11,172 bases of DNA from a virus (lineage: Duplodnaviria > Heunggongvirae > Uroviricota > Caudoviricetes), in IMG/VR virus record IMGVR_UViG_2778261217_000001, positions 1-11,172 of that record. One strand, written 5' to 3'. Shown here piece after piece: positions 1 through 11,172 of the stretch. The position numbers were made by a program, and so were the translations under genes. The notes below the pieces were generated by a model. It was not told the DNA's origin and searched no databases. It worked only from the letters and a program-made list of their open reading frames with translations. How positions within the stretch are numbered: position 1 is the stretch's first letter; the number at the start of each line of letters is the position of its first letter.

Positions 1-1260
1 ATGAAGCTCAACGCCAGACAGGTCGAGACCGCAAAGCCAAAAGATAAAACCTACAAAATGGCCGATGGCGGCGGTTTATATCTTGAGGTTTCTGCAAAGG
101 GTTCTAAATACTGGCGCATGAAATACAGACGCCCCTCTGACAAAAAAGAGGATCGCCTCGCTTTTGGTGTTTGGCCTACCGTGACGCTTGCTCAGGCAAG
201 GGCAAAGCGTGATGAAGCTAAAAAGCTGTTAGTGCAGGGCATCGACCCAAAAGCCGAACAGAAAGAAGCTCAGGCCGTGAACTCGGGGGCATACACTTTC
301 GAAACTATCGCTCGTGAATGGCACGCCAGTAACAAGCGCTGGAGTGAAGACCATCGATCACGCGTTCTACGCTATCTTGAGCTTTATATTTTCCCCCATA
401 TCGGTTCGTCCGACATTCGGCAGCTTAAAACCAGCCACCTGTTAGCCCCGATTAAAAAAGTTGATGCCAGCGGCAAACACGATGTCGCTCAGCGCCTGCA
501 ACAGCGCGTCACGGCCATTATGCGTTATGCCGTACAGAATGATTACATCGACTCAAATCCAGCCAGCGATATGGCCGGTGCGCTATCGACAACCAAAGCG
601 CGACATTACCCGGCTTTACCTTCCAGCCGGTTCCCTGAGTTTCTTGCACATCTAGCTGCATATCGTGGCCGTGTAATGACACGGATCGCGGTCGAGCTTT
701 CCTTGCTAACTTTTGTGCGCTCCAGTGAGTTACGTTTCGCGCGTTGGGATGAATTCGACTTCGATAAATCTCTTTGGCGTATACCTGCAAAACGAGAAGA
801 AATTAAAGGCGTGCGTTATTCGTACCGAGGCATGAAGATGAAAGAGGAACATATCGTTCCGCTTAGTCGGCAGGCGATGATTTTATTGAATCAGTTAAAG
901 CAGATTAGTGGTGATAAAGAGCTGCTTTTTCCGGGGGATCACGACGCAACTAAGGTTATGAGTGAAAACACCGTAAACAATGCATTGCGTGCCATGGGTT
1001 ATGATACGAAAACTGAGGTCTGTGGGCATGGTTTTAGGACGATGGCGCGTGGTGCTTTGGGTGAGTCAGGGTTATGGAGTGATGATGCGATTGAGCGCCA
1101 GTTAAGCCACTCAGAACGTAACAATGTTCGTGCGGCGTATATTCATACTTCTGAGCATTTGGAAGAGCGTCGGCTTATGATTCAGTGGTGGGCTGATTAT
1201 TTGCAAGAGTGTTATAAAGGGCCAATAACGCCATACGAATTTGCAAAGAAATCTCAGTAG
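1..1260 (+). CDS. int: P4-type tyrosine integrase (site-specific recombinase)
   Basis: 419-aa ORF. N-terminus AKPKDKTYKMADGGGLYLEVSAKGSKYWRMKYR is typical of P4/CP4-57-type integrases; C-terminal catalytic motifs HGFRTMARG (H-x-x-R) and a tyrosine in AAYIHTSEH. ORF starts at window base 1, so no upstream tRNA/att context is visible. Confidence 0.9.
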   Translation: MKLNARQVETAKPKDKTYKMADGGGLYLEVSAKGSKYWRMKYRRPSDKKEDRLAFGVWPTVTLAQARAKRDEAKKLLVQGIDPKAEQKEAQAVNSGAYTFETIAREWHASNKRWSEDHRSRVLRYLELYIFPHIGSSDIRQLKTSHLLAPIKKVDASGKHDVAQRLQQRVTAIMRYAVQNDYIDSNPASDMAGALSTTKARHYPALPSSRFPEFLAHLAAYRGRVMTRIAVELSLLTFVRSSELRFARWDEFDFDKSLWRIPAKREEIKGVRYSYRGMKMKEEHIVPLSRQAMILLNQLKQISGDKELLFPGDHDATKVMSENTVNNALRAMGYDTKTEVCGHGFRTMARGALGESGLWSDDAIERQLSHSERNNVRAAYIHTSEHLEERRLMIQWWADYLQECYKGPITPYEFAKKSQ

Positions 1261-1280
1261 AAAACATAAAATCTATTAGT

Positions 1281-1296
1281 TGTGATAGATATCACT
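1281..1296. promoter_or_regulatory. CRP-like palindrome TGTGA-N6-TCACT upstream of the cargo operon (alternatively a weak int terminator stem)
   Basis: tgtgatagatatcact matches the CRP half-sites TGTGA / TCACA at 9 of 10 positions; perfect 6-bp inverted repeat gtgata/tatcac (1282..1287, 1290..1295); followed by a T-rich tract. Confidence 0.25.
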
Positions 1297-1406
1297 TTGT
1301 TTTTATTGAAATATAACGAGGTTTATGCATCATAGGGCATAGTGCAAGTATATAAATAGATAACAAGCTAATAATTTTTCAAGATAATTATATTAAGAGG
1401 TGTTTA

Positions 1407-1577
1407 ATGGAAGTTAACGTGGTCACCATTGTTTTGGGGGTGTGTTTGTTTGCTGCTATCGTTGCCGTGCCTGTATGGAAAATAAGCGCAAGATTTTTCT
1501 TCAAAGGAGGAGTAAAAAATAAACTCAAAAATGTTTCAATTAATGGCGATTATACTGGTCGAGATAAGAAAAATTAA
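1407..1577 (+). CDS. Small predicted membrane protein, 56 aa (not in ORF track)
   Basis: ATG at 1407 preceded by AAGAGG (1395..1400, 6-nt spacer). Translation MEVNVVTIVLGVCLFAAIVAVPVWKISARFFFKGGVKNKLKNVSINGDYTGRDKKN has one hydrophobic helix; ends in tandem stops TAA TAA. C-terminal 20 aa repeat the N-terminus of the next gene. Confidence 0.4.
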   Translation: MEVNVVTIVLGVCLFAAIVAVPVWKISARFFFKGGVKNKLKNVSINGDYTGRDKKN

Positions 1578-1652
1578 TAAGGCCATTGTATGGGTATTTT
1601 TAATAGGCTGAAAAATGTTTTTGTAAATGGTGATTATGTTGGAAGGGATAAA
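1509..1652 (+). repeat. In-frame imperfect tandem duplication (copies 1509..1568 and 1593..1652, offset 84 bp) spanning the end of the mini-ORF and the start of the 180-aa gene
   Basis: Peptide GVKNKLKNVSINGDYTGRDK versus GIFNRLKNVFVNGDYVGRDK (14/20 identical); the DNA copies align over about 46 bp at roughly 75% identity. Confidence 0.55.
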
Positions 1653-2132
1653 ATTGTCTATAATACAGAACCCACTCAGCTAATGCTATTGCAAGAGGAG
1701 TATCAGGAAGAGTTTAAAAATAGGCAAATTTGCACAGAAATGATTGATGAACTGAATCATTATAATACCAAAAAAAGTAAAGTGCGTGATTTGGAAGTTA
1801 AACTTAATGCTGCTGGGTACTCTTCCTTTCTTGACGAAGCTCGCGAGTTAAAAGAGTTGGTTTCGAAATTAATTATACAATATCAGCATTATCGCTCAGC
1901 ACAGAAAATAATCGCTTTTTTATTGTCAGACGTTCATTCAATTTTTCAATACAGAATAAAACCTCATATAGTAAATAAACAACAAGAGGCACAGATCCTT
2001 GAATTAATATATTTATATATAGAGTGTGAACTGAGTAGAAAGTTAGGTATAAATGCCTTGGAGATATATAATAGACAATTGCGTGGTATGGTTTTCTTCC
2101 TTACAGGAAACTGTCATTTGGAGTGGGAATAA
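1590..2132 (+). CDS. Hypothetical protein, 180 aa (cargo operon gene A; no recognisable motif)
   Basis: ORF in AT-rich island, same strand as and immediately after the mini-ORF; stop TAA overlaps the next start as TAATG (2130..2134). Confidence 0.6.
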   Translation: MGIFNRLKNVFVNGDYVGRDKIVYNTEPTQLMLLQEEYQEEFKNRQICTEMIDELNHYNTKKSKVRDLEVKLNAAGYSSFLDEARELKELVSKLIIQYQHYRSAQKIIAFLLSDVHSIFQYRIKPHIVNKQQEAQILELIYLYIECELSRKLGINALEIYNRQLRGMVFFLTGNCHLEWE

Positions 2133-2629
2133 TGTTATTATATAACAAGGCATTTGATATCAATCATACTATTCTAAGAATGTCTTCATGGCTGCTAAAT
2201 AGCTCTGAGCCGTTAATAAGTCTTGAGGGTATAAGAATATTTGACTTCTTAATAGCATTTCCTGAGTACATATCCAAGTTATCACTAGGGAAAGAATTAG
2301 TGAAGGAAAGAAATAAGTTCAAAAGGTTTTCTAACCCTTATAATGCTTTTGATCCTCAATCCTTGTTTCAGCAAATGGAAGGGGTGCAAAAATCTGCAAT
2401 TTGTTCTTTAGTAACAGCATCAGTTTTAGTAGAAATTAATAATGAATTATATGAAATAAAAAAAGATAAGTTATATGCGATTGGATTTACCAAAACCAAT
2501 CTTTTTGATAGCATAAACGAAGATGTGATCTCATTTATCAGTAACAATCTTGAGACATTACCTGTAACGGGAATAACTGGACTTAAGGCCGCTAGCAAAT
2601 TAATGAGTTTTAAATATGATCGTATATAA
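2132..2629 (+). CDS. Hypothetical protein, 165 aa (cargo operon gene B; ORF track starts it at GTG 2123)
   Basis: ATG at 2132 overlaps the upstream stop (TAATG); purine-rich ggagtggg at 2120..2127; 3' end overlaps the ATPase gene start by 14 nt. Confidence 0.6.
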   Translation: MLLYNKAFDINHTILRMSSWLLNSSEPLISLEGIRIFDFLIAFPEYISKLSLGKELVKERNKFKRFSNPYNAFDPQSLFQQMEGVQKSAICSLVTASVLVEINNELYEIKKDKLYAIGFTKTNLFDSINEDVISFISNNLETLPVTGITGLKAASKLMSFKYDRI

Positions 2630-4529
2630 TCCCACATTGAATATTAAAAAACTTTACGCATTCAAGGATGGTAAAGAGGTCATACACTTGAAGTTTCATA
2701 ATGGGCTGAATGTCATATATGGCTCGAACGGAAGCGGAAAAACCTCGGCAATTCAGTTACTCGCGTATGTTCTTGGTTCTACGATCTATAATTGGAAAGA
2801 AGAAGCAGGGAGTTGTGATTACGTTATAGCTGAAATTTACGCAAATGAGTCTACTATAACCATTCGTCGTGAGATAAGTGACACAATGGCAGGTATGAGC
2901 ATTTTTTTTGGTACATATGAAGAAAGTATCAAAGCAGGGAAAACTGGATGGTTTAGCTACCCCTACGCAATTTCTACTAACAAGGAAAGTTTTTCACAAC
3001 GTATCTTTGAAATCTTAAACATACCTGAGGCTAAATCTGACGGGATTAATAATCTTACTTTACATCAAATCCTAAGGCTGGTGTATAACAACCAATCTGA
3101 TTCTGCAACAAGTATATTTAACGACGAGAAGTTTGATTCCGCAATAAAACGAGAGTTTGTAAGTAATTATTTGCTCGGTTTGTATGATGATGATCTTTAT
3201 AATAATAAATTAGAGTATATTAAAAAAGAAAAAGAGCTAACAAAAACAATAGCTGAGTTAAAGGGTTTACTATTATTAATAGATGGTCAAGATCTTGATT
3301 TTAAATCTGATAATTTAGATAGCTTATCTGAACAATTACAGGGAAAGATCGATTCTATAATTGAAGAAATTGAAAAGTATAAAGAGTTAGATACACGGAT
3401 AAAATTTAGTAATGAAGTTAAGGCAATTAGTGCAGAACAATTAGTGAAGGATAAGAACAAGCTTATTGCCTTGGAGGTTGAATTAAGTCAAATACAATAT
3501 AATATTGTTGATTCAACCAAATTTATTGAAGAATTACAAAATAAATTACTTGCTATTAATGATTCAATTAAATTTAATAGTTCATTCAAGTTTAAAGAGT
3601 TCGATACCTGCCCATCATGTTTTACTAAGTTGCCAACTGCTCATGATGATAGTAAATGCTCTCTATGTGGTACAGAAGACCCGGATTCGGCAAAGCAAAT
3701 TAATTATGCTAGAATGAAAAATGAAATAATGATTCAAATCAACGAGTCACAAAATCTTTTGGAAAGGAATAAAATAAAGAGTGGTGAGATCTCAAAGCAA
3801 ATAAAATGCTTAAAAAGTGGAATGCGGAAAGAAGTTAACAAAGTTTCGGTTGTTAGTTCATCTTTGAATTCCCATGATGATAGCTTACTTTATAGTAAAT
3901 ATAAAGAGATTGGAGAGCTTGAAGAAAGACTAGATACTTTAGGTCGTATGGAGTCCGTTTATTCAAAAATTAAAACACTTCAGACTCTCCGCGATAGCTT
4001 ACAAGCCAGAGTTACATTTTTACAAGAAAACATTAGTAAAAAAGAACATGATCTTCAGTTAAAAATGCCAGCACTGAAAGAGAAAGTCAGTGAATATATG
4101 GAAGAAGTTTTAACTAAAGATGTCGAAAATATTGATGATCCTCATGATAAAGCTGAATTTAGTAACATAACTAGCATCGACTTTGATCTGGCTTCAAATA
4201 GGATTGTTGTCAATAATAAAGTCTCATTCTCTGAGAGCTCAATGTACTATCTTAATAATGCCCTGCATATAGCATTGCTAAAATTAAGTTTGGTTGATCC
4301 TAATGTAAGATTTCCACGTCTTTTAATTCTGGACGGTATAGAAAATGGTGGCATGGAAGATGCTCGCTCACAGGGTATCCAAAAAACTTTAAAAGAAATT
4401 TCTGATGAGTTTTGCGGGGTTCGGCATCAGATTATTATTACAACTAAAGGAATATACCATGCCGTTGATAATGATAAATATCGAGTTGGAGAAAAATTTA
4501 CTTCATCAAATCGTAGTTTAAATATGTGA
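2616..4529 (+). CDS. SMC/Rad50-like ABC ATPase, 637 aa (Walker A head, long coiled-coil, C-terminal Walker B-like segment)
   Basis: N-terminal LNVIYGSNGSGKTSAIQLLAYVLG (Walker A GSNGSGKT, SMC_N-like); long K/E/L/I-rich heptad-like middle containing CPSC-N13-CSLC (about 3609..3666); C-terminal FSESSMYYLNNALHIALL followed by RLLILDGIENGGMED (hydrophobic run ending in D, Walker B/D-loop-like). Confidence 0.8.
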   Translation: MIVYNPTLNIKKLYAFKDGKEVIHLKFHNGLNVIYGSNGSGKTSAIQLLAYVLGSTIYNWKEEAGSCDYVIAEIYANESTITIRREISDTMAGMSIFFGTYEESIKAGKTGWFSYPYAISTNKESFSQRIFEILNIPEAKSDGINNLTLHQILRLVYNNQSDSATSIFNDEKFDSAIKREFVSNYLLGLYDDDLYNNKLEYIKKEKELTKTIAELKGLLLLIDGQDLDFKSDNLDSLSEQLQGKIDSIIEEIEKYKELDTRIKFSNEVKAISAEQLVKDKNKLIALEVELSQIQYNIVDSTKFIEELQNKLLAINDSIKFNSSFKFKEFDTCPSCFTKLPTAHDDSKCSLCGTEDPDSAKQINYARMKNEIMIQINESQNLLERNKIKSGEISKQIKCLKSGMRKEVNKVSVVSSSLNSHDDSLLYSKYKEIGELEERLDTLGRMESVYSKIKTLQTLRDSLQARVTFLQENISKKEHDLQLKMPALKEKVSEYMEEVLTKDVENIDDPHDKAEFSNITSIDFDLASNRIVVNNKVSFSESSMYYLNNALHIALLKLSLVDPNVRFPRLLILDGIENGGMEDARSQGIQKTLKEISDEFCGVRHQIIITTKGIYHAVDNDKYRVGEKFTSSNRSLNM

Positions 4530-4539
4530 TTTTGAACAG

Positions 4540-4566
4540 GTGCGGCTTTAGCTGCACTTGTCTTTT
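4540..4566 (+). terminator. Candidate intrinsic terminator after the ATPase gene
   Basis: 7-bp stem gtgcggc/gctgcac (one G-U pair), loop ttta, then T-rich ttgtcttttg, 11 nt after the stop codon. Confidence 0.45.
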
Positions 4567-4761
4567 GAATAATAATATATCGCAATTATTAATTCCGTGT
4601 AACTTTATTATTGTCTATGTTATTTATAGATGTTGGCGTTATATTATCGGTCGATAATGGATTTGAGCTATTTTAGGTTAGTTAAAGTTGTTTTAAAAAT
4701 TCGATAAAGAAAATAATTTGATACTCACAAATCCTTTCTTAGCATACTTAAAGTACCTCTT

Positions 4762-4795
4762 ACGCGCGCAGCCCCGCCCGCCTGCCCGCTTCGCT
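4762..4795. other. GC-rich cos-like element (candidate packaging/cohesive-end site)
   Basis: acgcgcgcagccccgcccgcctgcccgcttcgc is an abrupt GC-rich block at the AT-rich island boundary; its reverse complement ggcgggcggggctgcgc resembles the P2/P4 cos end GGCGAGGCGGGGAAAGCAC as I recall it (partial match only). Confidence 0.25.
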
Positions 4796-4865
4796 TAACA
4801 GACTGGTTTTCATGCACCCCGTAAACCGTCTCAGAAGCCACCACACAAGGGCTTTCGCGTCAAAA

Positions 4866-4900
4866 ATGGCGCATGAGACTCATGCGTTTTCATGCGCCAT
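4866..4900. terminator. Nested palindrome / candidate bidirectional terminator or operator between convergent operons
   Basis: atggcgcatga (4866..4876) and tcatgcgccat (4890..4900) are perfect reverse complements; inner gcatgag-a-ctcatgc palindrome; A-run on the left and tttt inside. Confidence 0.35.
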
Positions 4901-4944
4901 AGATATGCACTCATACGCTCTCAGGCCAGCCAGGGAAAAGGCGT

Positions 4945-4969
4945 AAAAAATCCCGGTACTGGACCGGGA
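4945..4969 (-). terminator. Candidate intrinsic terminator of the sid-psu-delta operon
   Basis: Stem tcccggt/accggga (4951..4957, 4963..4969) with loop actgg; on the minus strand it is followed by TTTTTT (plus-strand aaaaaa 4945..4950); lies 23 nt past the delta stop. Confidence 0.45.
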
Positions 4970-4991
4970 CTTCGTGGTCGTATTTTGCTAA

Positions 4992-5264
4992 TCAGACAGG
5001 AATTTGCTGACGGTTTGACAGCTTTGACGCGGAGCCATAGCGATTGAGTGTTTGCTGTTGTTTTTCCGGTATTTTTGCTTTGTCTGATTCCTGTTCATTG
5101 CACTGAGGCTTCATAATGATCGTATCCACGCTTTCCAGTGCGGTAAATGTGCAGGAACATTCCAGATTCTGGCACTGATACCATGAGCGTTTAACCGACG
5201 GAGCTTCATAGGCGCTGGTTCTGGCGTGAGCGACCGCGCCACATTCAGGACACTTCAGGGCCAT
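4992..5264 (-). CDS. delta: Ogr/Delta-family zinc-finger late transcription activator, 90 aa (start moved to internal ATG)
   Basis: MALKCPECGAVAHARTSAYEAPSVKRSWYQCQNLECSCTFTALESVD carries the Ogr/Delta C-x2-C ... C-x4-C pattern. ATG at 5264..5262 is preceded by AAGGAG and sits 1 nt after the psu stop; the ORF-track start at 5366 would overlap psu by about 100 nt. Confidence 0.85.
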   Translation of the reverse strand: MALKCPECGAVAHARTSAYEAPSVKRSWYQCQNLECSCTFTALESVDTIIMKPQCNEQESDKAKIPEKQQQTLNRYGSASKLSNRQQIPV

Positions 5265-5265
5265 A

Positions 5266-5820
5266 TCAGCACACTCCTTTTTCATTAAGTCGGTTAAGGC
5301 GGGCCAGGAAAACTTTATGTTGTGCCGGGGTGAAACTGGCTGAAGCATCAGCGCGCATTGATGCATCCACCGTTAATCCGGTTTCGTCGATAATGCTCTT
5401 ATATGCTGCTGAAATTACCGGAGTACGGACTTCCGTTTGTCGGGCTACAGCGGTTCGTAATATTTTCATTGCCGCCTCAAGCCCGTATGGTGCACAAAGA
5501 AAAGGAGCCAGAGCGTCAGTGAGTGCATCACCATGCTCGCTCATGAAGTTTTCAGTTGCGCTTGTAACACAGCTTTCCAGCACAATCTGGTGAGCATAAA
5601 GACCATCCCGGGCGGCACAGTTAATCTGCCATTCGAGGAGTGCAAGACGCTCACGAAGATCCTCAAGTTGGCTGGCATATGCTGCGGGTTTTTCTTCAGT
5701 ATCCAGCAAAGCAGCCAGACGAAGCTGGCTGGTACTTTGCACATTACGTAGTGTCAGCCAGCTTTTTATTGCCGCGCGGTAATCGTTGAGAGCTTCCTGA
5801 GTAATGGTTCCGGTATTCAT
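5266..5820 (-). CDS. psu: Psu-like polarity suppression protein, 184 aa
   Basis: Size and motifs (EHGDALTDALAPFL, FTPAQHKVF) match my recollection of P4 Psu (about 190 aa); start ATG overlaps the sid stop (ATGA, 5817..5820). Confidence 0.75.
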   Translation of the reverse strand: MNTGTITQEALNDYRAAIKSWLTLRNVQSTSQLRLAALLDTEEKPAAYASQLEDLRERLALLEWQINCAARDGLYAHQIVLESCVTSATENFMSEHGDALTDALAPFLCAPYGLEAAMKILRTAVARQTEVRTPVISAAYKSIIDETGLTVDASMRADASASFTPAQHKVFLARLNRLNEKGVC

Positions 5821-6569
5821 TCCTTCTCGCCCCCTTTAGCCATGTCACGCTGTTTAAGCATCCGGGAACGTGCTGCAGGGCTGGGTGATTGTCTGGCATC
5901 CTGTATGGCTTTATCGTCCGCATAAATGCTGATCCCCGGCAGGGCAATATCATCCGTTGAAGATACGTTACAGAACAGTGCCGGAGTGGTGAGTTGCTCG
6001 CTGATAAATTGCTTCAGCACACTTTCGGGGTCGTTTACGGTATGAACTACACCGATAACAGAAGATGCGCTTCGGCCCAGAGTCATTTTCAGCAGTCCAA
6101 GGATCTGAATAAGTTTCTGGCCGTGTTCCTTCATAAACTCATTCCAGAGCCACACTGCATGAGTTTCAATCAGGTGATTATGTTCGCTGATGTAGCGGTT
6201 TGCAGCATCCGCAGTTTTCCATGGCAGGAATTCATTTTCTGCAGCCTGAGCAGCCAGCAAATCTTCGAACTCATCCAGTGTTTCGCGTCCGAGGGCGATT
6301 TCTGCCCGCAGTTTTTTCATTCGTGGCGTCATATTCCCCTGATTCTCACGAAACAGGTTTCGCCATTCATCATTAAGCGCCTGCGTCTCCGTTTTTGTAT
6401 CTTCCTGACGTTTACGGATAGTTTCAGTCATTGCAGCGGCTTCGGTTTGTTTTCGCCGTTCTTCCTGCCAGACAGCTTTTGCTGCCTTAACTTTTTCCAC
6501 CGCTTCGCGAATTTTCGGCGGGAGGGTGGGGGTAATGTTTGCATCAGAGATCTGGTTAACAGTTGTCAT
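5817..6569 (-). CDS. sid: Sid-like capsid size determination protein, 250 aa from ATG 6569 (ORF track starts it at TTG 6602)
   Basis: E/K/A/Q-rich helical protein at the head of the operon, coupled to psu; ATG at 6569 has GGAG with a 5-nt spacer, whereas 6602 is TTG without a Shine-Dalgarno. Assignment is by position and size; I do not recall a sequence motif for it. Confidence 0.5.
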   Translation of the reverse strand: MTTVNQISDANITPTLPPKIREAVEKVKAAKAVWQEERRKQTEAAAMTETIRKRQEDTKTETQALNDEWRNLFRENQGNMTPRMKKLRAEIALGRETLDEFEDLLAAQAAENEFLPWKTADAANRYISEHNHLIETHAVWLWNEFMKEHGQKLIQILGLLKMTLGRSASSVIGVVHTVNDPESVLKQFISEQLTTPALFCNVSSTDDIALPGISIYADDKAIQDARQSPSPAARSRMLKQRDMAKGGEKE

Positions 6570-6603
6570 GGCTGCTCCGGTAGTGTTTTGTTGTTGTGTC
6601 AAT

Positions 6604-6659
6604 TGTGCCGGGGTCCATACAAGCGCACTACCGAGGAGGATTGTGTCAGTGACTGAACA
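6604..6659 (-). promoter_or_regulatory. Two TGT-N12-ACA elements upstream of sid (candidate Delta/Ogr-responsive late promoter)
   Basis: tgtgccggggtccataca (6604..6621) and tgtgtcagtgactgaaca (6642..6659); TGT-N12-ACA is the consensus for Ogr/Delta-activated P2/P4 late promoters; the distal site centre is about 81 nt upstream of the sid ATG. Confidence 0.4.
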
Positions 6660-6726
6660 ATGACCTTGTTCTGGCTAGCCAGAGAAAGGTGTCATGTCTG
6701 ATCTATACGCTTCCTTTAATACATAC

Positions 6727-6930
6727 TATTCACTACTGTTCACTTCAATAAAAATATAGTAAATACATGTGGTTAAGTGGTGTAGTGTTTTAATTAAAGT
6801 GATCATCTACTGTTCATGACTGTTCACAGAGATAAAATTAAACATATATTTTTTTTTCATATAAGTCGCGATATTTATTTCAGTTTATTACTGGATCTTT
6901 TCTCCTCACCAATATTCACCAGTATTCAAT
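6727..6930. repeat. Iteron-like direct repeats in the AT-rich divergent region (candidate ori)
   Basis: Exact 8-mer actgttca three times in one orientation (6735..6742, 6809..6816, 6819..6826), plus tattcacc (6913..6920) and tattcaat (6923..6930); these resemble the P4 alpha-binding iteron TGTTCACC as I recall it. Confidence 0.35.
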
Positions 6931-7474
6931 ACATATTCTATGTAAAGAATAAAAGATGTCTTATGTCTGTTTAATAATTAAACATTCAACCTCCCTGCAC
7001 TCAGTTGCATTTCAGGAAAATATTCATAAAAATGAATTTGTCTGATGTTCATTAAACACATCCGGATACATGCGGAAGTAAGATGGTAATTTAATTTCTT
7101 TAATCATCGGATTTATTGATACATATGGTGAGCTGTTTATTTTTGGCCGTTTTTGGCTCTTTTATTAATCAGGTGTTGTCTTAGTGCTTATGATGTAACG
7201 CCCTGAATGATATGGGCTGGTTCAGATTTGAGCTGTGATCCTGCCTAGTGTAATAGACTTTTTTATTATTGATGCTCCTTATTATATTCCATAAAGGAAT
7301 TGTTTGTTTTTGTTCGTTTCATACGGTTTTTAGCTGTTTTATTTTTTGAGAAATCAACATTTCACACAAAATAAATAAAGCATGCGCGAGCCGCTTATAT
7401 AAACATAATAAGGAGCTACCTGAATCCGCATGGAATTGCCCGGACTGTTGTAAACATATTAGAGAGGTAGCCAG

Positions 7475-7735
7475 ATGAATAGTATTTCCGTTTCCACCCC
7501 GGCACCAGCTGCTCCGGTGCTCCCGGTTCCGGCTCAGCAGGAGCGCTTCATACGATTACCTGAAGTGATGCACCTTTGCGGGCTATCCCGTTCAACCATC
7601 TACGACCTTATCAGCCGCGATGCCTTCCCGCAGCAGATATCCCTGGGTGGAAAAAATGTGGCCTGGGTACAGTCGGAGGTCAGTGCATGGATGGCGGCGC
7701 GAATTGCTGCCCGCGAGCAAGGAGGCCATGCGTGA
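7475..7735 (+). CDS. alpA: AlpA-family (Vis-like) phage transcriptional regulator / excisionase-like DNA-binding protein, 86 aa
   Basis: [50 protein letters not shown] is the characteristic AlpA/MerR-like HTH core; SD gagg with 7-nt spacer before ATG 7475. Confidence 0.85.
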
Positions 7736-7770
7736 AACTTGCTTTGCAGTCTCATCTCCTTTTTTCTGGC

Positions 7771-7800
7771 TTGCGTCCTGATATCTTTTCCAGGTATAGT
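7771..7800 (+). promoter_or_regulatory. Candidate sigma70 promoter for the immunity/replication operon (PLE-like)
   Basis: TTGCGT (7771..7776), 18-nt spacer, TATAGT (7795..7800). Confidence 0.35.
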
Positions 7801-7830
7801 TTTCCCGCTGCCGCAAAATCGGCTGCCGGG

Positions 7831-7855
7831 CGTAGGAACCCGAGTTACTTATTGG
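7831..7855 (+). promoter_or_regulatory. seqA-like antisense target site (a/b boxes)
   Basis: gtaggaa (7832..7838) and cttattgg (7848..7855) are exact complements of ttcctac and ccaataag in the downstream antisense element. Confidence 0.4.
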
Positions 7856-7862
7856 CGACACC

Positions 7863-7885
7863 AGACGCGCCGTGCGTCTTTTTTT
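7863..7885 (+). terminator. Intrinsic terminator directly after the seqA-like site
   Basis: Stem agacgc/gcgtct (7863..7868, 7874..7879), loop gccgt, then seven T (7879..7885). Confidence 0.5.
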
Positions 7886-7949
7886 ACGTCGTTGCTCAGG
7901 CACACCCATTTTTCGGGCTGCGGTGCTTATACCTTAGCCCCTTTCAGAT

Positions 7950-8030
7950 AATGGTGGTCCGGGCGGGGCAGCCTTCGGGCTGGCCGGTTTCCAATAAGGC
8001 CGGTATTCCTACCCCCGTTCGGGTCACCAC
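7950..8030 (+). ncRNA. c4/CI-like antisense immunity RNA candidate (boundaries approximate)
   Basis: Structured GC-rich segment with a UUCG-loop hairpin (gggcagcc-ttcg-ggctggcc, 7966..7985) followed by ccaataag (7991..7998) and ttcctac (8006..8012), which pair with two bipartite target sites on the same strand; no plausible ORF. Confidence 0.4.
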
Positions 8031-8037
8031 CCATGAG

Positions 8038-8080
8038 CGTAGGAACTCCGGTGGTGGCATTTACCGCTACTTATTGGAGG
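8038..8080 (+). promoter_or_regulatory. seqC-like antisense target site overlapping the ribosome-binding site of the first small ORF
   Basis: gtaggaa (8039..8045) and cttattgg (8070..8077); the latter runs into GGAGG (8076..8080), the Shine-Dalgarno of the ATG at 8089. Confidence 0.4.
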
Positions 8081-8088
8081 TTGCCCTT

Positions 8089-8280
8089 ATGGCTACGATC
8101 CTCGCCCCGTCACATCCTCAATTTATATTTGTTTTTGCCGCCGTTCGTCGTGCAGAACGTAAACCACGTATCAGTATGCTGCGTATCATCGCCAGCAATG
8201 AGCATCATGCACGTCTTTCACTGGTCCATGAGTATGTGCTTTGTCTTGCTGCTCGCCTGCCTGTCCGGGAGGTGATCTAA
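8089..8280 (+). CDS. Small hypothetical protein, 63 aa (3' part of track ORF 7576..8280; first gene controlled by the antisense module)
   Basis: GGAGG with 8-nt spacer before ATG 8089; stop TAA overlaps the next start (TAATG 8278..8282); same RBS style as the two following ORFs. Confidence 0.4.
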
Positions 8281-8504
8281 TGAATCACGCCGCAATCTCT
8301 TATGACGATATTCTCCGCCTGAAGCATCTTCGTAACGTGGGAGAGTTTGTCACCGGAATGGCTGTTCTTCAGGATTGCTACGAAAAACCTGCCAGTGCTC
8401 AATGTGAACAACTGGTTTCCCTGATTTATCTGATGACAGAGCAGCTTGATGGCGTGGTACAGCGTTGCCAGGATGACCTCATGAACATGGAGGTGGTGCA
8501 ATGA
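8280..8504 (+). CDS. Small hypothetical protein, 74 aa (track ORF 8241..8504 trimmed to the ATG)
   Basis: GGAGG (8268..8272) with 7-nt spacer before ATG 8280; stop overlaps the next start as ATGA. Confidence 0.6.
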
Positions 8505-8824
8505 AATCACGTACTCTTTCCCTTTCACTTCGGGTAGCGTTGTATCGCCGCGCGGTAGCCTGCGCCTGGTTGAGTGCCTGCTATCAGCAAAACCGCCATC
8601 TGCAGCTCACTCTGGATGAAATTGAAACCGCTATTGCCCGTGAGCTTGAAGGATTTTATCTGCGACAGCACGGGCAAACAAAAGGCATGGAAATCGCCTG
8701 CGCCCTGCTTTCAGACCTGATGGAATACGGCCCTCTAATGTCCTGTCCCGCACTCTCCCAGCTCGGAATAGCCGTAATGGATGAGTTATGCGTCCGTCAC
8801 ATCAAAAAGCCGGTTTTACACTGA
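8501..8824 (+). CDS. Small hypothetical protein, 107 aa
   Basis: GGAGG (8489..8493) with 7-nt spacer; ATGA overlap with the upstream stop; ends 14 nt before the primase start. Confidence 0.6.
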
Positions 8825-8838
8825 GGGAGAACTGCGTC

Positions 8839-11172
8839 ATGTCAGGAATGAAAGTCAGTCAGGCCGTGAAGGCTGCCCGCGGTCACTGGGCTCAGATTCT
8901 GCCAGCGCTGGGCGTGAATATATTGAAAAATCGCCATCAGCCTTGCCCGGTCTGTGGCGGTAAAGATCGTTTTCGCTTCGACGATCAGGAAGGACGCGGA
9001 ACATGGTTCTGCAATCAGTGCGGAGCCGGGGATGGTTTAGCGCTTGTCACCAGGGCACTGAATGTGGATATCAGTGAAGCAGCTGACAGGATACATGGAC
9101 TGACACATGATCTGTCTATAGTTAATTCCGAGGTCAGGACGTTAACCGCCGATACCGATAGCGGGAAAGATGCAGCGGCAGCACTTGCCGCGCGACTGCT
9201 GCAAGCCTCGCGTGAATCTGCCGGAAACACTTATCTTACACATAAAGGTTTCCCGGAGCATATTTGCCATGAGCTGACTTCAGCTCATAAGGCCGGTGGT
9301 GTGATGTTCCGCCCCGGTGATTTGATCGTCCCACTCTATAACGCTGACGGGGAGCTGGTGAATATTCAGCTTATCAGTGGCAATGGTAGCAAGTGTTTTC
9401 TTAAAGGAGGTCAGGTTAAGGAGGCCTATCATCTGATAGAAGGGGGCGGGAGTTCTGTAAGAAGGATTTGGATTGCGGAAGGTTACGCCACGGCGCTTAC
9501 CATTCATTATTTGACAGGAGAAGCCGTCATGGTGGCATTTTCGTCGGTCAACTTTCTTTCTCTGAGCAGCGTTGCCCATAATAAGTATCCTGGATATCAG
9601 TTAATTATTGCAGCGGACCGCGATCTGAATGGTTCAGGCCAGAACAGGGCTGAAACTGCTGCAAAAGCGAGTCAGTGTGACATTGTGCTGCCACCGGTTT
9701 TTGGTGACTGGAATGATGCGCTTACCCAATACGGAGAGGAATCCACCAGGACGGCAATTCTTGAGGCTTTGAAGCCACATAACGCCAGTCCTTTCGACAC
9801 AATGAGTGAAGCAGAATTCACAGCGATGAGTGTCAGCGAAAAAGCTCAGAGGGTTCGGGAGCATTACAGGGATGCACTGGCGGTTGATTCGAACGGGCAG
9901 CTTTTATCCCGCTACGAGTCTGGAGCGTGGAAAGTTATTTCTCAGTCAGATTTTGCCCGAGATGTCGCAGCCCTTTTCCAGCGCCTCGGGGCACCGTTTT
10001 CCTCAGGAAAAATTGCCTCACTGGTGGAAACATTAAAGTTAATTGTTCCGCAGCAGCAAAATCCGTCACGTCATCTGATTGGTTTTCGTAATGGCGTTCT
10101 CGATACGCGAACAGGGCTTTTTAGTCCGCACTGTAAAGAGAACTGGCTGCGTACCCTGTGTGAAGTCGATTTCACGCCACCGGTAAAGGGGGAAACGCTT
10201 GAAACTCATGCCCCGGCATTCTGGCGTTGGCTGGACCGGGCCGCCGGACACAAGCCAGCAAAACGCGACATTATTCTTGCAGCGTTATTTATGGTGCTGG
10301 CGAACCGCTATGACTGGCAGCTCTTTCTGGAAGTGACTGGCCCTGGTGGAAGTGGCAAAAGTATTCTGGCTGAAATTGCGACCATGCTTGCTGGAGAGGA
10401 TAACGCCACCTCTGCGACCATTGAAACGCTGGAGTCCCCGCGAGAACGTGCGGCTCTGATAGGTTTTTCTCTTATTCGCCTGCCTGATCAGGAGAAGTGG
10501 AGCGGCGACGGCGCCGGGCTTAAGGCTATAACTGGTGGCGATGCAGTATCTGTGGACCCCAAATATCAGAATGCTTATTCAACACATATTCCGGCGGTTA
10601 TCTTGGCCGTAAATAATAATCCTATGCGCTTCACTGATCGCAGTGGTGGTGTGTCCCGCAGGAGAGTTATTCTGCATTTTCCTGAGCAGATAGCACCGGA
10701 AGAACGCGATCCGCAGTTGAAAGATAAAATTGCACGAGAACTGGCTGTGATTGTTCGTCAGCTCATGCAGCGTTTCAGCGATCCGATGAGCGCCAGAACA
10801 TTGCTTCAGTCGCAGCAGAATTCTGATGAGGCTCTCACCATCAAGCGTGATGCTGATCCAGCATTTGATTTTTGTGGCTACCTTGAGGCATTACCTGACA
10901 CCAACGGCATGTTTATGGGGAACGCCAATATTGTCCCGCGCCAGCCACGTACGTACCTTTACCATGCCTATCTTGTATACATGGAGGCTAATGGCTTTAA
11001 AAATACCCTTAGCCTGACAATGTTTGGCAAAGGGCTACCAGTTATGCTGAAGGAATACGGGCTAAATTATGAGAAGCGGCGAACTAATCAGGGAATGCAG
11101 ACTAACCTCACTTTAAAAGAGGAAAGTAATGCAGACTGGCTTCCCAAGTGTGATGAGCCAACAATCAAATAA
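8839..11172 (+). CDS. alpha: P4 alpha-type primase/helicase, 777 aa (start moved to ATG 8839)
   Basis: N-terminal zinc-binding motif CPVCGGKDRFRFDDQEGRGTWFCNQCG; acidic TOPRIM-like region (IIAADRD); Walker A VTGPGGSGKSILAEIA in the C-terminal half; SD gggaga at 8825..8830. The 777-aa length equals P4 alpha as I recall it. Confidence 0.9.
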   Translation: MSGMKVSQAVKAARGHWAQILPALGVNILKNRHQPCPVCGGKDRFRFDDQEGRGTWFCNQCGAGDGLALVTRALNVDISEAADRIHGLTHDLSIVNSEVRTLTADTDSGKDAAAALAARLLQASRESAGNTYLTHKGFPEHICHELTSAHKAGGVMFRPGDLIVPLYNADGELVNIQLISGNGSKCFLKGGQVKEAYHLIEGGGSSVRRIWIAEGYATALTIHYLTGEAVMVAFSSVNFLSLSSVAHNKYPGYQLIIAADRDLNGSGQNRAETAAKASQCDIVLPPVFGDWNDALTQYGEESTRTAILEALKPHNASPFDTMSEAEFTAMSVSEKAQRVREHYRDALAVDSNGQLLSRYESGAWKVISQSDFARDVAALFQRLGAPFSSGKIASLVETLKLIVPQQQNPSRHLIGFRNGVLDTRTGLFSPHCKENWLRTLCEVDFTPPVKGETLETHAPAFWRWLDRAAGHKPAKRDIILAALFMVLANRYDWQLFLEVTGPGGSGKSILAEIATMLAGEDNATSATIETLESPRERAALIGFSLIRLPDQEKWSGDGAGLKAITGGDAVSVDPKYQNAYSTHIPAVILAVNNNPMRFTDRSGGVSRRRVILHFPEQIAPEERDPQLKDKIARELAVIVRQLMQRFSDPMSARTLLQSQQNSDEALTIKRDADPAFDFCGYLEALPDTNGMFMGNANIVPRQPRTYLYHAYLVYMEANGFKNTLSLTMFGKGLPVMLKEYGLNYEKRRTNQGMQTNLTLKEESNADWLPKCDEPTIK

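Follow-up and report, generated by a model that had tools for sequence, protein, structure and literature searches.

What is the short GC-rich hairpin that lies directly behind a putative antisense target in this viral DNA, and does it control transcription of the genes downstream? The question concerns a stretch of 11,172 nucleotides (positions 1 to 11,172 of the IMG/VR record IMGVR_UViG_2778261217_000001; hereafter, the window refers to this whole stretch). The original prediction described a seqA-like site ending at 7855, followed by a GC stem and seven T at 7863..7885, and inspection of the sequence confirmed both the coordinates and the description. Two target blocks can be read upstream of the hairpin, GTAGGAA at 7832-7838 and CTTATTGG at 7848-7855, and a 7-nt spacer, CGACACC (7856-7862), separates the second block from the stem. 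The stem is composed of AGACGC (7863-7868) and GCGTCT (7874-7879) and closes on a 5-nt loop, GCCGT (7869-7873), which is reducible to 3 nt through a G.U pair. The T-run (7879-7885) comprises seven T including the stem-closing T7879, and six of them lie beyond the stem.

A terminator scan ranked 7863-7885 among the best matches in the window (7 pairs, 4 of them G-C). This class of terminator-like pattern is common in the window (17 sites, versus 9.7 +/- 3.5 in shuffles), and the fold of the 80-nt leader RNA was no better than the folds of its own shuffles (z = -0.03). Therefore, the single sequence alone is not significant, and it is the comparison among related loci that gives the hairpin its significance. 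The hairpin is weak, with a predicted energy of -7.8 kcal/mol versus -8.6 kcal/mol for the corresponding hairpin of P4. This low energy would fit a leaky terminator upstream of the CI gene, and a leaky terminator is required by the layout because the CI gene is located downstream of it. A terminator function on the minus strand was rejected, since on that strand the stem is not followed by a T-run. Around the terminator, GGCGAC (7854..7859) can pair with GTCG (7888..7891) just past the T-run; 5-7 out of 8 pairs of this flanking helix are possible in 65 of 70 sequences, and the helix could form only in read-through RNA.

The window shows Pfam matches to int, delta, psu, sid, alpA, ash, DUF5375 and the primase, which together make up a full P4-like satellite. 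Based on these matches, the integrase is encoded at 1-1260, the Ogr/Delta, Psu and Sid-like proteins at 4992-6602 on the minus strand, DUF5375 at 8501-8824 and the alpha primase from 8788. The leader is immediately preceded by the gene of a vis/AlpA-like regulator on the plus strand (7475..7735; Pfam Phage_AlpA, 71.8 bits). Three consecutive ORFs on the plus strand (1590..4529) match Pfam ABC-3C families (CTD9 and MC5) and an AAA_23/SMC-like ATPase, and are probably accessory defence-type cargo lying between the integrase and the delta/psu/sid genes. The RNA module of the window (query 7740-8100, 361 bp) recurs with 100% identity in the chromosome of E. coli D6, at a locus in which PGAP annotates a helix-turn-helix regulator at the vis/AlpA-like gene. 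The same query matched 161 E. coli records at >=99% identity, with up to five such places per E. coli genome.

For comparison, 80 loci were fetched from Enterobacterales genomes with the alpha primase as bait; by nhmmer, 74 of them contain an isrK-like element and 75 a C4 element. The 75 leaders compared here are those of the window, of P4 and of 73 element copies from 72 fetched loci, ranging in taxon from Escherichia to Yersinia, Serratia, Pectobacterium and Pantoea. Pairing and conservation were computed on an alignment of 71 distinct sequences.

The hairpin proved to be part of a known type of RNA. The Rfam isrK model (RF01394) matched 7807-7884 on the plus strand with 72.1 bits (gathering score 50) over model positions 1-77 of 77, and the terminal hairpin and U-run of the model coincide with the hairpin and T-run of the window. 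On this match, the hairpin is the 3′ hairpin of an RNA of the isrK family, a family that has already been described and that Rfam characterizes as Hfq-binding. The c4-a1b1 model (RF03163) gave 43.8 bits on 7794-7846, just under its gathering score of 46.7, with the same hairpins; elsewhere it scored 44.1 bits in P4 and 49.1 bits in phiKO2. The isrK match, the minimum free energy (MFE) fold and the helix support delineate a predicted IsrK-like (seqA) leader RNA of about 78 nt on the plus strand (7807..7885), with hairpin 1 at 7807-7826, hairpin 2 at 7827-7842, a linker and the terminator. Three hairpins were found in both the MFE and the centroid fold of the leader, the last one being followed by the U-run. 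In the 71 sequences, the helices of hairpin 1, hairpin 2 and the terminator are paired at 99.4%, 85.6% and 99.1%, respectively. Hairpin 1 of the window has a U.U mismatch at 7809/7824, where 69 of 71 relatives have a U-A pair; this mismatch is shared only with one other locus (L066).

Upstream of the leader, a PLE-like promoter can be read on the plus strand (7771..7800), consisting of a -35 element TTGCGT (7771-7776), an 18-nt spacer and a -10 element TATAGT (7795-7800). A promoter of the form GGCTTGC ... TAYAGT is conserved throughout the 59 distinct upstream sequences, 6-7 nt ahead of the RNA start, and in P4 the annotated -10 element is located at the place equivalent to that of the window. 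Downstream of the terminator, the Rfam C4 antisense RNA model (RF01695) matched 7947-8034 on the plus strand with 83.4 bits (gathering score 45). The order on the plus strand is thus PLE-like promoter (7771-7800), terminator (7863-7885) and C4 RNA (7947-8034), as in P4. The distance from the leader start to the C4 start is 140 nt in most loci, and 185 nt in P4 and its closest relatives; in the window, the spacer behind the T-run occupies 7886..7946.

The hairpin and T-run occur at a fixed distance from the target in all the 75 leaders, one locus having a 1-nt deletion. The six T after the stem and most of the stem bases are invariant among the 71 sequences. One stem pair (alignment positions 58-72) varies, being G-C in 49 and C-G in 22 sequences with zero unpaired cases. 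Among the sampled P4-like elements across Enterobacterales, the leader terminator is therefore universal.

The two blocks upstream of the hairpin are the target of the C4 RNA encoded at the same locus. The a-block of seqA, GTAGGAA (7832..7838), is located in the loop of hairpin 2 and pairs with TTCCTAC (8006-8012, block a′) of the C4 RNA; the b-block, CTTATTGG (7848..7855), is located in the single-stranded linker and pairs with CCAATAAG (7991-7998, block b′) in the C4 loop. All of these elements are on the plus strand, and the RNA at 7947..8034 is accordingly annotated as a C4/CI-type antisense immunity RNA that contains seqB. A second target, seqC (8039..8077, plus strand), has blocks identical to those of seqA, a2 GTAGGAA at 8039-8045 and b2 CTTATTGG at 8070-8077, and overlaps the GGAGG ribosome-binding site (8076-8080) of a nested kil-like start (ATG at 8089). 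Inside seqC, between a2 and b2 and before the kil-like start, is a second terminator-like hairpin on the plus strand, CGGTGG...TACCG (8049..8066), which we take to be a possible counterpart of the atypical P4 site t4.

The complementarity is locus-specific. The a-block is complementary to the C4 RNA of its own locus in 74 of 75 loci and the b-block in 72; both blocks are fully complementary (G.U allowed) to their own C4 RNA in 72 of 75 loci, versus 4.8% of foreign pairs. Exact recurrence in seqC was found for the a-block in 74 and for the b-block in 66 of the 75 loci. In the window, the predicted seqA duplex has an energy of -34.0 kcal/mol with its own C4 RNA versus -24.4 kcal/mol with that of P4, and the seqC duplex -35.4 versus -27.8 kcal/mol. 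The 75 loci, in which the two blocks occupy alignment columns 25-32 and 42-49, comprise 7 a-types, 16 b-types and 34 combinations of the two. This diversity suggests that target blocks are exchanged independently and that immunity specificity may evolve by modular recombination, so that target specificity would be assembled from two exchangeable blocks. At one locus, of Mangrovibacter yixingensis (L055:41-330), the seqA blocks GTAGGAA and CTCAATGG mismatch the C4 RNA of the locus and its seqC matches, and this leader looks recombinant or mismatched.

The whole module overlaps a protein-coding frame. An eta/Ash-like (Icd-like) reading frame on the plus strand (7732..8280), annotated by PGAP as a CDS in E. 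coli D6 and matching Pfam Phage_ASH with 114 bits, encloses the promoter, seqA, the terminator, the C4 RNA and seqC. Its GTG start, which PGAP sets at 7732, shares sequence with the stop codon of vis, and in 74 of 75 loci no stop codon interrupts the frame across the element. The match to the Pfam Ash protein family (PF10554) covers 7795..8125 of the window (residues 22-131 of the frame), which is exactly the stretch encoding the isrK-like RNA, the C4 RNA and seqC. Part of the conservation of the Ash family is therefore RNA-driven.

Given this overlap, the hairpin and T-run might be a by-product of the coding constraint on the eta/Ash-like frame (codons ...D A P C V F F Y...) or of chance, with no function in RNA. 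Its location inside a conserved frame with a Pfam match, the frequency of terminator-like patterns in the window and the shuffle test of the 80-nt fold would agree with such an origin. The synonymous sites contradict it, and we rejected it as having a practically negligible probability. In the 71 sequences, the third codon positions of the stem and the T-run are invariant (TTT TTT never TTC, GAC never GAT), whereas the third codon position in the loop varies (identity 0.69) and control third positions from the C-terminal part of the eta-like frame have a mean identity of 0.63, with none of 61 columns reaching 0.97. The covarying stem pair couples a non-synonymous D/H change with a synonymous one, and in Gifsy-1, termination at the homologous hairpin is proven. 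Selection at the RNA level thus maintains the stem and T-run within a protein-coding frame. Another possibility is that the hairpin has nothing to do with the antisense target and simply ends the late transcript of vis/alpA upstream, as might be expected of a hairpin that follows the vis stop codon by 128 nt on the same strand. However, a conserved promoter is present between vis and the hairpin, the eta-like frame begins on the vis stop codon and continues through the hairpin in nearly all loci, and the hairpin belongs to the isrK model, which begins at the promoter-proximal end. In addition, phiKO2 has the same module behind other upstream genes (Gp31 and Gp32), with no annotated vis/AlpA gene. 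The intervening promoter and the fixed 7-nt link of the hairpin to the target block contradict a vis terminator, which we rejected as very improbable.

The scan, the predicted energy, the helix pairing, the invariant T-run and the frozen synonymous positions all point to an intrinsic terminator on the plus strand at 7863..7885 that is homologous to P4 t1. We consider it probable that this terminator ends the IsrK-like RNA of about 78 nt, and that it works more efficiently when CI RNA is bound to seqA, thereby limiting CI synthesis. In P4, t1 is reportedly an intrinsic terminator between PLE and cI, as attributed to Briani, Ghisotti and Deho (2000, Mol Microbiol 36:1124). According to the same report, efficient termination at t1 is said to need both CI RNA and seqA, and CI is said to enhance it in vitro; deletion of t1 reportedly raises CI levels with lysogeny kept, t1 being dispensable for immunity. 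Its main role is said to be the autoregulation of CI RNA, the CI gene being downstream, and the main blocks to the replication genes are reportedly placed after cI, at t4 and at the Rho-dependent timm.

This background bears on the second part of the original prediction, namely that pairing of the antisense RNA with the nascent leader controls read-through into the replication operon, by analogy with P4. The analogy itself gained support from the homology of the leaders, the presence of the same hairpin in P4, the full satellite gene set and the finding that the needed anatomy is under selection. The role ascribed to it in the replication operon was overstated, because t1 reportedly acts mainly in CI autoregulation and the main blocks are said to come after cI.

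By homology with P4 and Gifsy-1, we infer that termination at this hairpin would occur, would be leaky and CI-dependent, and would be overridden by translation. Transcription would start at the conserved PLE-like promoter, near 7807, and a fraction of the transcripts would stop in the T-run at about 7883-7885, yielding an RNA of about 78 nt with both the a- and the b-block. The remaining transcripts would read through and be processed to the C4/CI antisense RNA (7947-8034). The CI RNA would in turn pair with the a- and b-blocks of the nascent leader and make the weak terminator more efficient; the loop could limit CI synthesis because the CI gene is downstream of the terminator. The terminator would thus represent a first, non-essential barrier ahead of later stops around seqC. 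Transcripts from the late promoter would be translated through the region in the eta-like frame, and formation of the hairpin would be prevented. In P4, translation of eta from the late promoter prevents termination, as summarised in a later paper (PMC10111431).

The question of how CI RNA would increase termination at hairpins of this type has been raised before. CGGGCGU (7827-7833) of the window is able to form a helix with ACGCGCCG (7865-7872), and the predicted probability of the terminator increases from 0.69 to 1.0 when the targets are blocked. The mean predicted probability over the 71 sequences is 0.90 in the free leader and 0.98 with blocked targets. We therefore do not put forward an equilibrium antiterminator as a general mechanism, the pairing seen in the window not being common to the family. 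Therefore, any effect of CI must be kinetic or structural. A transient helix between GGCG (7854-7857) and CGCC (7868-7871), which overlaps the b-block as well as the terminator, was predicted for the nascent RNA of 50 of the 71 sequences. Hardly any variation is seen in its columns, the one double change occurs in a sequence with a damaged terminator, and 16 of 500 shuffles do as well. As a hypothesis drawn from these folding predictions, CI might prevent this transient helix from competing with the folding of the terminator.

The hairpin could also be a constitutive terminator independent of CI, the main purpose of which is to produce a discrete trans-acting IsrK-like RNA, either as a decoy of CI/C4 (anti-immunity), also for CI of co-resident elements that share its type, or as an activator of translation of the read-through mRNA, like the short IsrK of Gifsy-1. 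The terminated RNA would contain both target blocks, identical to those of seqC, equilibrium folding forms the terminator unaided in most loci, and the isrK family in Rfam is described as Hfq-binding. With up to five such places in one E. coli genome, cross-talk between elements is possible. The short IsrK of Gifsy-1 indeed acts in trans on its own read-through transcript (PMC4825925). A trans-acting RNA is compatible with termination enhanced by CI and does not exclude it. The P4 work, in which CI RNA reportedly increases t1 termination in vitro and t1 deletion reportedly raises CI, points to regulated termination, and we know of no demonstration of a trans role of the short RNA in any P4-like element. 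A constitutive terminator of this kind is possible and rather unlikely. An extended form of the same idea, which we regard as unlikely and put forward as speculation, is that the short RNA is a trans-acting partner of CI (a sponge with anti-immunity effect), that the 34 block combinations set a network of cross-talk and heteroimmunity, and that CI blocks the transient GGCG/CGCC helix. If true, the network would span co-resident P4-like satellites, N15-like plasmids and lambdoid prophages with isrK/C4 modules.

The preferred reading, a t1 homologue whose termination is enhanced by CI RNA, is best seen against the systems that it resembles. The P4 leader (PLE, seqA, t1, cI and seqC), the subject of work by Deho, Ghisotti, Briani and colleagues in 1992-2002, has all its parts in the same order and on the same strand as the window, with about 71% nucleotide identity over the region. 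It folds into the same three hairpins, the last having a 6-bp GC-rich stem (GACGCG-CCA-CGCGTC) followed by seven T, and it matches isrK with 60.8 bits between the annotated -10 element TATAGT and the C4/CI RNA. The gene neighbourhoods are also alike, with vis/alpA upstream, eta/ash, DUF5375 and the alpha primase downstream, and int, delta, psu and sid elsewhere. Both elements have the same two-block complementarity among seqA, seqB and seqC. The distance from leader start to C4 start differs (140 nt in the window, 185 nt in P4), as does the loop of the terminator stem, which has 3 nt in P4 and 5 nt, or 3 nt with the G.U pair, in the window. The target blocks differ as well, being GTAGGAA (a) and CTTATTGG (b) in the window and GTGAGAA (a) and TTCACAGG (b) in P4, and duplexes formed across the two elements are less stable, by about 10-16 kcal/mol, than those of each element with its own RNA. 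Therefore, the window element is predicted to be heteroimmune to P4. This satellite of E. coli thus carries a complete P4-type RNA immunity module whose predicted specificity differs from that of P4.

The c4 RNAs of P1, P7 and N15-type phages (RF01695, RF03163) are likewise processed antisense RNAs located between two copies of their own two-block target, as in the window; the RF03163 a1b1 model covers hairpins 1 and 2 only. In Klebsiella phage phiKO2, an N15-like plasmid prophage (L084:602-801), isrK and C4 matches were found upstream of icd/antA/antB. The phiKO2 hairpin is annotated by the depositors as a putative terminator (669-689) at the same relative position, and its a-block, GTAGGAA, is that of the window. 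In phiKO2-type phages, in contrast, the c4 module belongs to a plasmid prophage and governs icd and antirepressor genes (anti-immunity), not the replication genes of a satellite. Attenuation in plasmids of the pT181, pIP501 and pAMbeta1 type follows a similar logic, in that termination is stimulated by a small RNA that binds the nascent leader immediately before an intrinsic terminator, as is proposed for the window. In these plasmids, the antisense RNA is the product of the strand opposite its target and acts by excluding a clear antiterminator helix, whereas the C4 RNA comes from the same strand as its target, 92 nt farther downstream, and binds by means of two short blocks, with no general antiterminator predicted in the isrK-like family.

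For IsrK of the lambdoid Salmonella prophage Gifsy-1 (RF01394), the covariance model fits the window end to end, including the terminal hairpin and U-run. Hershko-Shalev et al. 2016 named P4 seqA a structural homologue of Gifsy-1 IsrK (PMC4825925), and Barquist et al. equated IsrK with seqA and C4 with CI in P4-like prophages (PMC3632133). In Gifsy-1, the homologous hairpin is a documented leaky rho-independent terminator, through which a subset of transcripts reads, and the read-through mRNA also yields a downstream stable C4-related RNA (PMC4825925). The short IsrK increases downstream transcription 8-fold and translation >100-fold (PMC4825925). The authors considered that termination might be modulated by the C4-like RNA; one co-expression test disagreed with this idea, and the C4-like RNA, when expressed constitutively, lacked the behaviour expected of a simple termination factor (PMC4825925). 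In Gifsy-1, the role documented for the short RNA is the activation of translation in trans, as opposed to antisense-enhanced termination, and the genes downstream are orf45 and the antirepressor-like anrP, with no replication operon. Assigning the hairpin to a described terminator and RNA family has little importance beyond annotation. The hairpin and T-run are the already described leader terminator of P4 type, strongly conserved and belonging to a P4-like satellite prophage of E. coli, and the window element is a different immunity type within this well-described kind.
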